From positions 1-17,886 of the forward strand of contig JAOZPR010000003.1 of NCBI GenBank assembly GCA_029932645.1: 17,886 nt of DNA. Direction: 5' to 3'. Below the pieces are notes generated by a model. That model was not told the origin of the DNA and made no database searches. It saw only the letters and a list, made by a program, of their open reading frames with translations. Made by a program: the position numbers and the translations under genes. The DNA is from Candidatus Aenigmatarchaeota archaeon. Its GTDB lineage: Archaea; Aenigmatarchaeota; Aenigmatarchaeia; GW2011-AR5; JAGGXF01. Positions 10,851-15,135 of this stretch are shown piece after piece; position 1 is the stretch's first letter, and each line of letters starts with the position of its first letter.

Positions 10851-11108
10851 TTAAATTATATCCTTCTCAGATATTATTACAAAATCACCGACGCTCTTGA
10901 CTGTTGAGAACGGAACCAGCATCCTGCCGTGGTCATCTCTCTCCAGATTAAGATCATTTGCATGCGGTGTTTCCTGAGCAAGAGCGATATTTAAGAGTTC
11001 CCCGCTCTCAGCAACAAATTTAATATCACCAACTACGCCGAACTTTCTTCCGGTCTCTTCAGAAACAACTATCTTACCAATTATCTCTCTTCCTCGGGCT
11101 TTAACCAT
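10851..11108 (-). CDS. PRC-barrel domain protein (CdpB-like, possible FtsZ/SepF-associated division protein)
   Basis: IIGKIVVSEETGRKFGVVGDI...SGEL...VPFSTVKSVGDFVII is a stand-alone PRC barrel; GAGGTG RBS. Confidence 0.85.
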   Translation of the reverse strand: MVKARGREIIGKIVVSEETGRKFGVVGDIKFVAESGELLNIALAQETPHANDLNLERDDHGRMLVPFSTVKSVGDFVIISEKDII

Positions 11109-11747: not shown

Positions 11748-12467
11748 TTAGAGAGCGAGTTTAGAGAAAACCCTGCCCATCTTCTTCCTGAGATCCTTTT
11801 TAGTTCCCTCATTATCTATTATATAATCTGCCTTTTTTATAACGTCACCAAGGCCCCAACTAATCTCTCTCTTGTCACGCCAATCAAACTCTTTTCTTGT
11901 TTTCATATCCCACGGGAGCCCTCTTTTTTTAAGCCGCTCAAAACGTGTCTTTGGTGCGGCTAGAATAGAAATTAACACAAATCTTTGTCCAAACTGTTTT
12001 TTGAAAAGCGCGACCTCTTGTGGACCTCTTATACCATCTATCAAGACCGTGCTCGACTTCTTGAATTTTTCTTTTATCAGTGGAACGCATTTTTTTGCAA
12101 CTATATCATACCCGTGTTTTTTTCTTAGCTTATCTGCATAGTCGCGTAAATTTTTGTTGTTCGGCTCGATTTTTTTCTTTCTCATCTCATCTTCTACAAC
12201 ATGCCGCATCACAATAACAGGCACGGATTTTTTTTCTATTATTTTTCTGACCTCTGTTTTTCCGGCGCCCGGCATACCTGTTATGGCTATGATTCTTTTG
12301 GGTTCTTTCTTTTTTTTAATTTTTTTATTTTTTCTGTGTTTTGCCTTCTTGCGCCTTTTCTTTTGGCCTTTGATGTCCTTTGTTTTACCTTTTGTTTTTT
12401 TTAGTTTTTTTATGTGAGGGTTTAACCCCATTTTCAAGCCCCCGGCCATAGTCATGCTCATAGTCAC
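11748..12467 (-). CDS. UPF0200/COG0237 (dephospho-CoA-kinase-like) P-loop kinase with Lys-rich N-terminal extension
   Basis: ITGMPGAGKT, IDGIR..E, RFERL..RG, RD.RE..WG and ADYIIDNEG motifs. Start uncertain (12467-12431); it overlaps or abuts the AAA+ stop codon. Confidence 0.88.
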   Translation of the reverse strand: MTMSMTMAGGLKMGLNPHIKKLKKTKGKTKDIKGQKKRRKKAKHRKNKKIKKKKEPKRIIAITGMPGAGKTEVRKIIEKKSVPVIVMRHVVEDEMRKKKIEPNNKNLRDYADKLRKKHGYDIVAKKCVPLIKEKFKKSSTVLIDGIRGPQEVALFKKQFGQRFVLISILAAPKTRFERLKKRGLPWDMKTRKEFDWRDKREISWGLGDVIKKADYIIDNEGTKKDLRKKMGRVFSKLAL

Positions 12468-13648
12468 GCCTTCACAAGAATTGTTTTGGCCTGTGTGCTG
12501 AGTCTGTAAACAAACGAGCGGCCACGACTCTGTCTTTCCACAATTCCGTCCTTCTTGAGTCGCTGAAGAATATTGTTAACAGACCGGAGCGCGTGCTCCC
12601 TGCTTTTGTATTTTGCCATGTCTAAAAGATTAACAATCTCCCCAGGCTTCATGTCCTTTTTGATGAGCATATTTATTATTTCTTTTTGTCTGTAAGGTAG
12701 GTTGTCTAAAAGACTGAACGAGCGCTTTTTTTCTTGTTTTTCCTTTTCAATACTTTCTAGAAACTCTGGCGTTATCAGATGAGCACCAGTCTCGGTGGCC
12801 AGGTTAACTAGCCTGTCGCAAACTCTAAGAACCTCTCTTGGAAAACCACCCGTCTTTTCATATATTTTTTCCAGCAAATCTTCTGTAAATGGGGTAGGGT
12901 AAGAACCACCAACACTCTCTATTCTTTTTTTAATCAACTCTTTTGTGTCCGCTTTCGAAAGCGAAACGAGTTCTACTCTGGTTATGATTCTCTTTTCAAA
13001 TGACTGCAACTTCATATTAAGTATCTCGTCAAATATCGGCAGCCCAGAAAGGATAATTATAATATTATCTACTTGATCGCTAAAAACGCGTAGCCACTCT
13101 AAAACCTCTATGTCTGCTTCGTGCGCCTCGTCACACAAAACAACAAGGTATTTTTTCCCGAGCTTTTTGTTCACAAAATCCGGGATTTGGTGTGGCATTT
13201 TTATGTGAGGGTTTAGCCGCAAAAAAAAGAACAGCTTCTCTATAAACGATGGCTTGAACTTTTCTTTAAAGAGCATTGCCAACTCTTCTGGTGTTTCAGG
13301 CGGTTTGCTTATAAACAATGTCAGAAAATCGTCGGAAATTTTTTTCTCAATCCATTTTAAGAACGTTGTCTTCCCAGAACCAGTAGGACCTATTATAAGT
13401 GCTAGTCTGTGTTTTTCTTCTATGTGCCTCAAAATTTTTTTGCACTGTTCGTCATAACCAACGAAAAGATTCGGATTGATGGTCAAGGTAAACGGGTTTG
13501 AACACCATCCCTGCTCCTTAAACCAGAGTGTAGATCCCACTTCTTCGGACTTTTCATCTTTTTCGTTTTTTTGTTCTTCTTTCCCGGGCGATTCTATAAT
13601 ATCTTTTGTTGTATTCGGGCTGTTCAGATTCTCTGTTTTTTCATCCAT
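12464..13648 (-). CDS. ExeA-like (AAA_22) AAA+ ATPase with C-terminal winged-helix domain
   Basis: GW..NPF N-terminal motif, Walker A GPTGSGKT, Walker B VVLCDEAH, Arg-finger region FEKRI, sensor-II TGGFPRE, and C-terminal wHTH (SVNNILQRLKKDGIVERQSRGRSFVYRL). Confidence 0.88.
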   Translation of the reverse strand: MDEKTENLNSPNTTKDIIESPGKEEQKNEKDEKSEEVGSTLWFKEQGWCSNPFTLTINPNLFVGYDEQCKKILRHIEEKHRLALIIGPTGSGKTTFLKWIEKKISDDFLTLFISKPPETPEELAMLFKEKFKPSFIEKLFFFLRLNPHIKMPHQIPDFVNKKLGKKYLVVLCDEAHEADIEVLEWLRVFSDQVDNIIIILSGLPIFDEILNMKLQSFEKRIITRVELVSLSKADTKELIKKRIESVGGSYPTPFTEDLLEKIYEKTGGFPREVLRVCDRLVNLATETGAHLITPEFLESIEKEKQEKKRSFSLLDNLPYRQKEIINMLIKKDMKPGEIVNLLDMAKYKSREHALRSVNNILQRLKKDGIVERQSRGRSFVYRLSTQAKTILVKA

Positions 13649-13650
13649 TC

Positions 13651-13670
13651 ATAACACCAAATAACACCAA
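13651..13670. repeat. ATAACACCAA x2 tandem repeat at the AAA+ translation start (contains GGTG on the minus strand)
   Basis: Exact 10-bp tandem duplication. Confidence 0.6.
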
Positions 13671-13680
13671 TGATAGCAAT

Positions 13681-13780
13681 GTTCACACCGTGTTCACATC
13701 TGTTCACGTGATGTTCACATAAGTTCACGCGACCTTCATGTGATGTTCACGCATGTTCACATGAGTTCACATGAGTTCAC
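13681..13780 (+). repeat. GTTCAC array 1 (10 units, 10-11 bp period)
   Basis: Units start at 13681, 13692, 13702, 13713, 13723, 13734 (CTTCAT), 13745, 13755, 13765 and 13775. Confidence 0.95.
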
Positions 13781-13825
13781 GTGTGTATTCGCATGAAATT
13801 TGTATTATTAACATGGTATGTATAG

Positions 13826-13840
13826 TATATAAATTTTTGG
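13826..13840 (-). promoter_or_regulatory. Putative BRE/TATA promoter of the AAA+ operon
   Basis: Minus strand reads CCAAAAA-TTTATATA, pointing through array 1 toward the AAA+ start. Confidence 0.5.
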
Positions 13841-13869
13841 GTTATAGGCCAGATAGCTGCATGCTACTC

Positions 13870-13901
13870 ATATATCATTATATATCAGTCATATATCAGT
13901 C
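13870..13901 (+). repeat. ATATATCA(GTC) x3, 10-11 bp period
   Basis: Units at 13870, 13880 and 13891; the last two are an exact 11-bp tandem. Confidence 0.8.
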
Positions 13902-13939
13902 GTGTTTATGCCCCCATAGCTAGGACGGCACAGGTATTT

Positions 13940-14102
13940 GTTCATACGTGTTCACGTGATGTTCACATAATGTTCACGCGACCTTCACGCGTGTTCACGC
14001 GCACCTAGAACAAGTTCACGTCAATTTCACATAATGTTCACGCGAGTTCACGGCGGGTTTAAATATTTCACATGGCCCATATGAAATGAATATGAAGTTC
14101 AC
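13940..14102 (+). repeat. GTTCAC array 2 (12 units, phase kept across gaps)
   Basis: Units at 13940, 13950, 13961, 13972, 13983, 13993, 14014, 14025, 14036, 14046, 14066 and 14097. Confidence 0.93.
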
Positions 14103-14118
14103 GTGAAGTTCAGCCTAA

Positions 14119-14210
14119 AATGTGAACAAATGTGAACAAAATGTGAAGTTAATGTGAAATAAGCTTCGAAATGTGAAGAAAATGTGAACAAATGTGAAGT
14201 TAATGTGAAC
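14119..14210 (-). repeat. Inverted array 3 (8 units of AATGTGAA, i.e. TTCACATT on the minus strand)
   Basis: GTGAA at 14122, 14132, 14143, 14154, 14173, 14184, 14194 and 14205. Confidence 0.93.
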
Positions 14211-14371
14211 ATTAATTCCTAGTAAATTCTTAGGAAGTAGCAAAAGAAAAAACAAATAATTATGGGTAGATTCTTATTACATGTCCATACTTTGTGAGAG
14301 ATAAGAGCAATAATCAAGGTAAAAAAAGTCTGAAAATAATAAAAAAATTTCAACAGGCTCCCAAAAGCTGT

Positions 14372-14408
14372 GTTCACGTGATGTTCACGCGTGTTCACAT
14401 CTGTTCAC
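14372..14408 (+). repeat. GTTCAC array 4 (4 units)
   Basis: Units at 14372, 14383, 14393 and 14403. Confidence 0.93.
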
Positions 14409-14564
14409 AAAACCGAAAAAACACACAAATTCTATCATTTTTTAATGAGAAAATATCACGCTAGGTGTGAGCCCAAAAAATGCTGCTATCAGCACGTTTT
14501 TACATGTTTTTGTATATTTTAGCAATTTTTTAACAAGGGCTGGCAATCCTCACAAAGCTTTGTT

Positions 14565-14888
14565 TTACAGTGTTCTAAACTTATTTACAAGTCTCAAATA
14601 TCTTAAGGTGTCAGATAAACTCTCTCCTCTAGAAAGTTTGTCTATAATAAATGGTTTGAGTTTGATGACCCTGAGAATGGGCTTTTCTCGGCCAAGTTTC
14701 GTGTCCTCGACCAGCGGCGCGAGAACCGTATCAATGTAGTGACTAACCGTAGAAGGGTGTATTTTTGCGCGCTTAGCTATCTCCCGCAGCCAGAGCCCTT
14801 CCGGGTTCTCATATAATATCTTAATAATAAGCATGGCCTTTTTCGGATCAGGCCCACCTGGTCTCCCGGGTTTGTCTGCTTTTGGCAT
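14565..14888 (-). CDS. Small HTH DNA-binding protein with Pro/Gly/Lys-rich N-terminal arm
   Basis: ENPEGLWLREIAKRAKIHPSTVSHYI is an HTH; GAGG RBS upstream. Confidence 0.82.
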   Translation of the reverse strand: MPKADKPGRPGGPDPKKAMLIIKILYENPEGLWLREIAKRAKIHPSTVSHYIDTVLAPLVEDTKLGREKPILRVIKLKPFIIDKLSRGESLSDTLRYLRLVNKFRTL

Positions 14889-14946
14889 TCCTCTAACCTC
14901 TTTTAGTCTGTCTCTGTTAATCCTTATATCTCACATAATAATTAAT

Positions 14947-14980
14947 TTTTTAGACAACTGTCTATAAATACTTTTTCCCA
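14947..14980 (-). promoter_or_regulatory. BRE/TATA (GAAAAAG-TATTTATA) with overlapping palindromic operator TAGACA-AC-TGTCTA
   Basis: Perfect 6-2-6 inverted repeat at 14951-14964, directly downstream of the TATA box of the HTH gene. Confidence 0.55.
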
Positions 14981-15135
14981 TAGAAAAATGGCTCTAAATG
15001 GCCGAAAAGCCACGAAATTCATACTTTTGGGTATTCCAAATAAATATTAAACCCTCACGAAAAACAGGTGAATTAATCGCTATTTAGGTCTTTCGGGCCC
15101 CTGGCTTTTAATGTTTTTTTCACTATAAGTTATAC

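Follow-up and report, generated by a model that had tools for sequence, protein, structure and literature searches.

TubR, the adaptor of the tubC/TubR/TubZ system, is a winged-helix protein, and in the type II parC/ParR/ParM system of plasmid R1 eleven-bp iterons are placed around the promoter. At E. coli oriC, oppositely oriented and helically phased DnaA arrays guide an AAA+ oligomer, and datA-type titration loci and autoregulation belong to the same system. The tubC/TubR layout consists of split repeats with two iteron types round the operon promoter, together with a small adaptor (accessible text of PMC6009700). Sulfolobus SegAB has a role in chromosome segregation with a site-specific DNA binder, and how one-origin archaea segregate their chromosomes and link initiation to division is described as largely open (accessible text of PMC7617429). 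In this study, we report that a lattice of helically phased sites, accompanied by its own ATPase and adaptor, is a real, phylum-wide cis element of Aenigmatarchaeota that lies outside every family tested; its mechanism is one that we infer. On the features compared, the module falls outside the Orc1/oriC family and partition types I-III. Neither the module nor the 10-mer TTCACGTGAA was found among the papers listed on Aenigmatarchaeota/DPANN origins, Orc1, segregation and centromeres, in literature that included few subscription papers and no supplements, and the module is not described in the accessible text of 10.64898/2026.05.13.725050, PMC6009700, PMC7617429, PMC12680538, PMC3914693 or 10.1101/2023.03.28.534520.

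The window analysed is the whole stretch of 17,886 nucleotides from contig JAOZPR010000003.1 of a Candidatus Aenigmatarchaeota archaeon (genome G000). Within about 730 bp (13681-14408), 35 units with the core TTCA(C/T) stand one per helical turn in four arrays (10 + 12 + 9 inverted + 4), laid out as follows.

13681..13780, forward strand: array 1, 10 TTCA(C/T) units, period 10.48 bp, placed after the putative TATA box of the ATPase gene and before its start codon
13826..13833, reverse strand: putative archaeal TATA box of the ATPase gene, TTTATATA, assigned by sequence
13940..14102, forward strand: array 2, 12 units separated by 1, 2 or 3 helical turns, period 10.52 bp
14098..14107, no strand: perfect palindrome TTCACGTGAA where arrays 2 and 3 meet
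14103..14210, reverse strand: array 3, 9 inverted units, period 10.23 bp
14211..14371, no strand: 161-bp gap between diverging arrays, 72% A+T
14372..14408, forward strand: array 4, 4 units, period 10.31 bp

A first-pass annotation of the sequence had listed the spacings of all four arrays, and these were reproduced exactly on recount. Its figure of about 35 hexamers holds for units with the core TTCA(C/T); the exact GTTCAC/GTGAAC hexamer occurs 25 times within 13681-14408 and 27 times in the whole window, against 7.2 expected, a count reached in 0 of 200 shuffles. The periodicity check proposed for the word positions gave best-fit periods of 10.2-10.5 bp. Whole turns separate successive units in 29 of 31 gaps (null mean 5.7, maximum 14, in 20,000 random placements), and the two exceptions are 19-bp gaps, both in array 3. 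Preservation of phase over skipped units, as claimed, was thus confirmed within each array, whereas a common phase across arrays 1, 2 and 4 is unclear. In pooled loci, words of like orientation lie 11, 21-22, 31-33, 41-42, 52 and 62-63 bp apart, forming one lattice whose order extends to 6 turns, and the mean spacing stays near 10.5 bp because local 11-bp runs are offset by 19-20-bp steps. Words of unlike orientation lie 5, 15-16 and 25-26 bp and 6, 17 and 28 bp apart, the commonest forward-reverse offset being 5 (73 cases in 30 loci). The offsets 5, 15-16 and 25-26 place the inverted sites half a helical turn from the forward ones, so that both faces of the helix are probably used, contrary to the single face first proposed. 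The linkers, described earlier as freely varying, are also constrained: position +5 of the unit is a purine in 35/35 cases and +6 a pyrimidine in 33/35, and hence the unit is best written as a degenerate TTCACRYGAA (TTCACGTGAA) palindrome. A separate 11-bp tandem repeat, TCATATATCAG (3.2 copies, window 13868-13901), is located in the gap upstream of the putative ATPase TATA box.

The possibility that the arrays are a neutral minisatellite or an assembly artefact was considered, and is now very remote. TRF calls parts of the lattice as tandem repeats, and at 13755 a whole 10-bp unit is missing from one strain, so that slippage does occur, although the first-pass preference for binding over slippage is upheld as far as selection is concerned. 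The 35 units, however, comprise 28 different 12-mers, the word is common to ATPase loci across the class, and a phased triplet is present in 150/251 genomes against 9/251 for a reversed control; the minisatellite and artefact reading was accordingly rejected on conservation. Selection for protein binding at the helical repeat, as originally suggested, agrees with the retention of word and period across the phylum while linkers diverge, and with strain differences that miss the cores: all 7 single-base differences inside the arrays fall outside the cores, which make up 190 of the 408 bp of the arrays (P ~0.02 for 6 events). With respect to assembly, one contig of run X2, which may be the source sample, spans the whole stretch, one contig of run X6 spans 13591-14308, two overlapping contigs of run X1 cover the stretch, and the layout recurs in other species. 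The absence of repeat-spacer structure and the 10-11 bp period bear out the statement that the locus is not a CRISPR.

Genome-wide uniqueness was examined over the 719-kb genome (89% complete) in 1,417 windows of one kb, where the background of TTCAC/GTGAA is about 1.7 per kb. The locus contains 17 phased 5-mer pairs and every other window at most 2; with no other strong cluster in the genome, the arrays are not one of many scattered minisatellites. A single strong cluster per genome was likewise found in the single-contig genome G162 and in the examined parts of G031 and G196. Rfam gave no family match in the arrays, and one sub-threshold SAM-II score outside them. A loose cluster of 7 TTCAC/GTGAA words was seen 20 kb from the main array (G000 C26:34237-34405; L034:1237-1405), in the space where polB and a membrane-protein gene converge; it is not in promoter position.

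Three genes near the arrays are relevant to their interpretation. Two of them, for an ATPase and a winged-helix protein, flank the lattice, and the first-pass annotation had not connected them with it.

12464..13648, reverse strand: 394-aa AAA+ ATPase with ExeA-like motifs (AAA_22), a winged helix at the C terminus and an Orc1/Cdc6-like predicted fold; candidate TTCAC binder
14565..14888, reverse strand: 107-aa winged-helix protein with an N-terminal GRxxG motif and two C-terminal helices; candidate CTCACA binder
10851..11108, reverse strand: PRC-barrel gene, a same-strand neighbour downstream of the ATPase gene with two kinase-like genes between

Archaeal Orc1/Cdc6 proteins have an AAA+ part followed by a winged helix, and the modelled ATPase appears to share both this order and a similar size. 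The AlphaFold model (pLDDT 83) finds its best full-length match in Orc1/Cdc6 (Z 19.5-20.2), the top Foldseek match being 2qby (E 8.9e-13), and against 2qby_B the model gives Z 19.5 with an rmsd of 12.7 over 326 residues. The AAA+ module superposes best on MuB and TnsC, which form filaments (Z 17.3; 235-241 residues aligned at an rmsd of 3.5-3.6). At the sequence level the ATPase is not an Orc1: it has no Cdc6_C match, it scores 19.7 bits for TIGR02928 against a cut-off of 181, and its likeness to the orc1 product of its own genome is negligible (hhalign 2.7%). The best NCBIfam score, 75.5 bits for the ExeA-like TIGR03015, is below the cut-off of 324.5, and a PDB sequence search returned P-loop matches only. 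Walker A/B, R220 and R271 are invariant in 24 ATPase sequences; arginine finger and sensor II are standard AAA+ motif names, and R220 may be the former and R271 the latter. The family is compact, 1.84 billion representatives yielding 124 clusters at E <= 1e-30, and the search for related loci gave one archaeal orthologue plus weak bacterial AAA matches.

Although the TnsC, MuB and ExeA-like ATPases provide the closest superposition for the AAA+ module, the present gene differs from them in being single-copy, syntenic and fused to a winged helix. No transposase was found among the 26 window proteins and no secretion gene in the window, and in contrast to Tn7, Mu or IS21-type transposons the distribution is non-mobile, with neighbours common across the class. 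The labels ExeA, TadA and secretion ATPase given to this protein would be wrong under segregation and operator readings alike. No phased array was detected at distant ATPase paralogues (33% and 24%) or at the second Cdc6-like gene of G162 (G000 C5:22585-23061; G162 C1:432602-433309 and 139851-140867).

The ATPase is present in 50/60 relatives of the order and in 177/251 Aenigmatarchaeota genomes. Arrays were present in 29/29 of the relatives' loci of the order, at least 10 TTCAC/GTGAA words occur in the kb upstream of the ATPase in 44/51 loci across the class, and the TTCAC word is unchanged across the class. The predicted recognition helix of the ATPase, RS(V/I)NN(I/L)L, is nearly invariant as well, also where no small gene is adjacent; since word and helix are both near-invariant in this way, the ATPase is the likelier TTCAC binder, and we hold with good though incomplete confidence that it binds the lattice.

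The small winged-helix gene adjoins the arrays in 27/29 loci of the order, the other 2 stopping at a contig edge. When its product was compared for kinship with TubR, only winged-helix matches of a generic kind came up (best Z 10.9), and Foldseek returned nothing at E <= 0.001. Its score for an IS21 HTH is weak (E 0.059), and its nearest clusters are unnamed Aenigmatarchaeota proteins. A second motif, CTCACA, and a third, palindromic motif were identified around it.

14293..14298, reverse strand: CTCACA, second motif, in the 161-bp gap
14466..14471, reverse strand: CTCACA, second motif
14549..14554, forward strand: second motif, in opposite orientation
14930..14935, forward strand: second motif, inverted, upstream of the small gene
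15054..15059, forward strand: CTCACG, second motif, inverted, about 100 bp before the promoter of the small gene
14951..14964, no strand: palindrome TAGACAACTGTCTA, third motif, just downstream of the putative TATA box of the small gene

At least two copies of CTCACA are present in 34/40 loci with the small gene and in 2/40 without it, two loci of uncertain status having been excluded. The copies are on the sense strand and keep fixed lattice offsets (+19/20, +29/30, +40/41, -33, -43/44) that differ from those of TTCAC. In 11,041 bp upstream of 36 small genes, 28 inverted copies were counted against 0 in the other orientation, most genes having one copy, and a strict pattern of the third motif matched in 12/36 loci, against 0.04 expected per 140 bp. 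Either the inverted CTCACA or the third palindrome could be the operator of the small protein.

Families f11, f14, f16, f17, f22, f23 and f33 have no small gene beside the array. In this branch the sites are fewer and their phasing is weak, with 0-7 phased pairs where the other branch has 5-28; many of the sites are at the promoter. In f14 (G070:C11, G129:C11, G124:C19, G066:C8), phased TTCAC triplets take the place of one dense array and occur at 2-3 positions spread over roughly 25 kb that includes the ATPase and orc1 genes. In a quick tree of the ATPase, loci with and without the small gene form two large groups (3 changes), and the co-occurrence of small gene, CTCACA, dense lattice and lack of ParA therefore amounts to approximately one independent contrast.

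The layout resembles that of tubC/TubR/TubZ. In both, split blocks of short direct repeats lie upstream of an NTPase operon and over its promoter (here a putative one), and both have two iteron types and an adjacent small DNA-binding protein. The differences are that the tubC motor is a tubulin-like GTPase, whereas here an AAA+ protein carries its own winged helix, and that the present locus is chromosomal and class-wide, has the order adaptor-array-NTPase, and is without an adjacent adaptor in about half of the class. Type II systems employ an actin-like ATPase and a ribbon-helix-helix adaptor; the folds here are AAA+ and winged helix. With SegAB and ParABS the locus would share a candidate segregation role and a site-specific DNA binder, but its ATPase is not of the ParA type with deviant Walker A: no AAA_31 match was obtained for it, the five AAA_31 matches of G000 are all away from the locus, and true ParA is separate and in other families. 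By analogy with E. coli oriC and datA, the lattice has phased, opposed arrays and presumably autoregulation; it differs from the DnaA system in a winged helix instead of domain IV, a site that is not the origin and a bound protein that would not be the initiator.

The reading that we prefer, tentatively and at somewhat under even probability, is that of a centromere-like, self-repressing platform tied to oriC. The lattice consists of once-per-chromosome, helically phased sites about 15 kb from an ordinary origin. The Orc1-shaped ATPase would coat it through the winged helix and oligomerise along it in an ATP-dependent manner, while the small winged-helix protein would bind the phased CTCACA sites; the complex of both proteins with the lattice would repress its own operon and would act as a centromere-like handle, organising or separating the origin region once it has been copied. 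Each chromosome is thus likely to carry a single large protein-DNA assembly, which probably organises or separates the origin region rather than starting replication. The array may be a scaffold for a filament or for DNA wrapping, as the first-pass annotation had proposed. Consistent with the preferred reading are the single strong cluster per genome and its density upstream of the ATPase in 44/51 loci, the superposition of the AAA+ part on MuB and TnsC, the CTCACA sites at fixed offsets that track the small gene (34/40 vs 2/40), and the tubC/TubR-like layout. Against it, the associated characters make up essentially one split, and the branch without the small gene has promoter-centred, weakly phased sites like those of an operator. 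We know of no initiator-type AAA+ protein that serves as a partition motor, and segregation as the purpose is the least supported part of the preferred reading.

The promoter-centred sites could instead suggest a plain autoregulatory operator, the real job of the ATPase being elsewhere and needing no specific site, in keeping with which no other strong cluster exists in the genome. This is improbable: the 35 sites occupy 730 bp, the majority lying upstream of the putative TATA box by 100-600 bp, the lattice is ordered to 6 turns in pooled loci, and a second phased motif is present.

The relation of the lattice to the origin was then considered. In G000 canonical orc1 is 15 kb from the lattice. 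Upstream of orc1 in 30 loci, inverted TTCCAYAGGAAAT...GGGG boxes were recognised by eye, which we take to be ORB-like, and no TTCAC arrays were seen by eye in the same 30 loci. The array repeats are not ORBs with a G-string; their word is TTCAC, and the ORB-like boxes are at orc1 instead. In 59 genomes among the matches listed with both genes on one contig, a sample in which short contigs favour short gaps, orc1 and the ATPase gene are 0.3-58 kb apart (median 16), and in 54/59 the ATPase gene points away from orc1, so that the lattice would be copied first. A palindrome, TATAACA-N-TGTTATA, recurs between the inverted ORB-like boxes upstream of orc1 in many relatives (L221-L250). Following orc1 in G000 (C26:30019-34155; L033) are DP1 and a PolB ending in a zinc-finger tail of the DP2 type, an arrangement already described for Aenigmatarchaeota (accessible text of PMC12680538).

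In 3/3 long contigs the switch in four-fold-site A/T skew maps to orc1/oriC rather than to the array. In G031 the switch is at 357-358 kb, with oriC at 357.6 and the array at 375.8 (F 72-80, 0/200 permutations; array disfavoured by 19-36 units); in G196 it is at 626, with oriC at 629.2 and the array at 656.2 (F 43, 0/200; 28 units); and in G162 a weak switch is at 689, with oriC at 690.0 and the array at 665.7 (F 14.6, 2/200; 4.8 units). Among four synonymous-site measures in G031 only four-fold A/T pointed to the region and was picked afterwards; the test was then repeated in G196 and G162 with windows centred on the region. G/C skew favoured neither orc1 nor the array, and whole-contig cumulative skews were ambiguous. 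The main-origin reading, favoured at first, was dropped because of the ORB-like boxes and the skew switch at orc1.

A second, dormant or auxiliary origin, or an oriC co-activator site, at which the ATPase would be a divergent initiator and the inter-array gap would unwind, is an equally improbable reading as the plain operator. As in Orc1/ORB origins, inverted sites surround an A+T-rich gap; Orc1/Cdc6 is the best full-length fold match; orc1 is only 0.3-1.8 kb from the ATPase gene in f13; and the ATPase and lattice are absent together with canonical Orc1. ORB origins, however, have a few long ORBs where the lattice has a 5-bp core once per turn, and a separate ORB-type oriC with orc1 and the skew switch (weak in G162) is available 15 kb away. 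The gap is less A+T-rich than the region upstream of orc1 (best 100 bp 76% A+T, top 1.2% of genome windows, against 84%), its length varies among loci, and the ATPase has negligible sequence likeness to Orc1. For the centromere-like platform, on the other hand, proximity to oriC was weakened as evidence by a synteny control. Among traceable genes, 30/31 contig genes in G031, 18/18 in G196 (240 kb examined) and 17/28 in G162 are within 40 kb of oriC; nearness therefore says little, because the block as a whole (rpa, radA, dnaG, polB, PRC barrel) lies close to the origin in all three genomes.

Alternatively, the lattice could be a replication-sensing switch, both high-capacity sink and operator for the ATPase, that links initiation to division; we regard this as unlikely, though less so than the two readings just weighed. 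The lattice would double soon after oriC fires, titrate the repressor and switch the ATPase/PRC-barrel operon. Array 1 is suitably placed between the putative TATA box and the ATPase start codon, the orientation away from orc1 in 54/59 genomes among the matches listed would have the lattice copied first, and the joint absence with Orc1 is also in agreement. In 44/51 loci a PRC-barrel gene lies downstream of the ATPase gene in the same orientation, often within 45-140 bp, and PRC-barrel CdpB proteins act in FtsZ-based division in haloarchaea, although a division role is not general to PRC barrels (accessible text of 10.1101/2023.03.28.534520). In many loci, however, other genes separate the PRC gene from the ATPase, and here it has an A+T-rich upstream gap of its own. 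A wider regulon was also not seen: TTCAC was not enriched at mcm (0.50 words per 230 bp, 16 promoters) or ftsZ (0.52, 29 promoters) of the own order, against a background of 0.42 from 432 ORFs, 13 of 30 mcm loci having been unparsed and 1 mcm and 1 ftsZ locus too short. Exact phasing over 700 bp and a second motif likewise exceed the needs of a sink. By eye, ORB-like words were noticed just upstream of some mcm genes (L284, L287, L291, L293), which suggests control of mcm by Orc1, and a TACTATTACTACTATT-type repeated motif 40-100 bp upstream of ftsZ in 11/30 loci (L309, L310, L312, L315, L316, L318, L320, L321, L324, L329, L330).

The distribution of ParA bears on the preferred centromere-like reading. 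Strong matches (E < 1e-39) were found in 14/251 genomes and in no family with the small gene beside the array, which speaks for that reading; most genomes without the small gene, however, likewise have no strong ParA. In f17 and f22 genomes with ParA have arrays that do not clearly differ from those of genomes lacking it, and replacement of the module by ParA was rejected, the pattern existing at family level only and ParA not tracking array strength within these families. G000 has ScpA, and SMC could therefore serve segregation. Downstream of ParA in f17 and f22 (L338, L339, L344, L345) come a winged-helix-like gene of 69 aa and another gene of 60-66 aa, the three possibly being a small partition operon.

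The ATPase and lattice were also not found where canonical Orc1 was not found, in families f18 and f20 (64 genomes, e.g. G098, G081, G133, G240, G079; L378). The ATPase gave 1 weak match in 50 f18 genomes and 0/14 in f20; canonical orc1 at 1e-60 gave 0/50 and 0/14, and Cdc6_C 10 weak matches in 50 and 0/14. Dense arrays were not found in either family, single matches occurring in 10/50 and 1/14. RpoB identity is not unusually diverged in these families (54-58%, against 57-74% in others). One f18 genome has a 348-aa Cdc6-like gene, 31% identical to orc1, with 25 bp upstream only. An RpoB tree, drawn from 21 rows of this single gene in incomplete genomes and without an outgroup, places f18 and f20 together with f14. 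As f14 retains both genes, at least two losses are needed, on at least two branches. The f18 and f20 families may replicate without ORB origins.

This joint absence is in line with the preferred reading. Taken further, that reading would make the locus a phylum-wide chromosomal partition or origin-organising system of a new kind, in which an Orc1-shaped AAA+ ATPase and a small winged-helix adaptor build a two-motif, two-faced nucleoprotein lattice near oriC and which would have been discarded together with Orc1-dependent origins; we consider this possible, a little less so than the centromere-like platform itself. What has been defined is a module of two small proteins, one 730-bp site and three motifs that is kept across most of a reduced-genome DPANN phylum. 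It is missing where canonical Orc1 is missing, it bears on initiation, segregation and division in one-origin archaea and, under the further-reaching reading, it would be a DPANN 'centromere' driven by an initiator-type ATPase.
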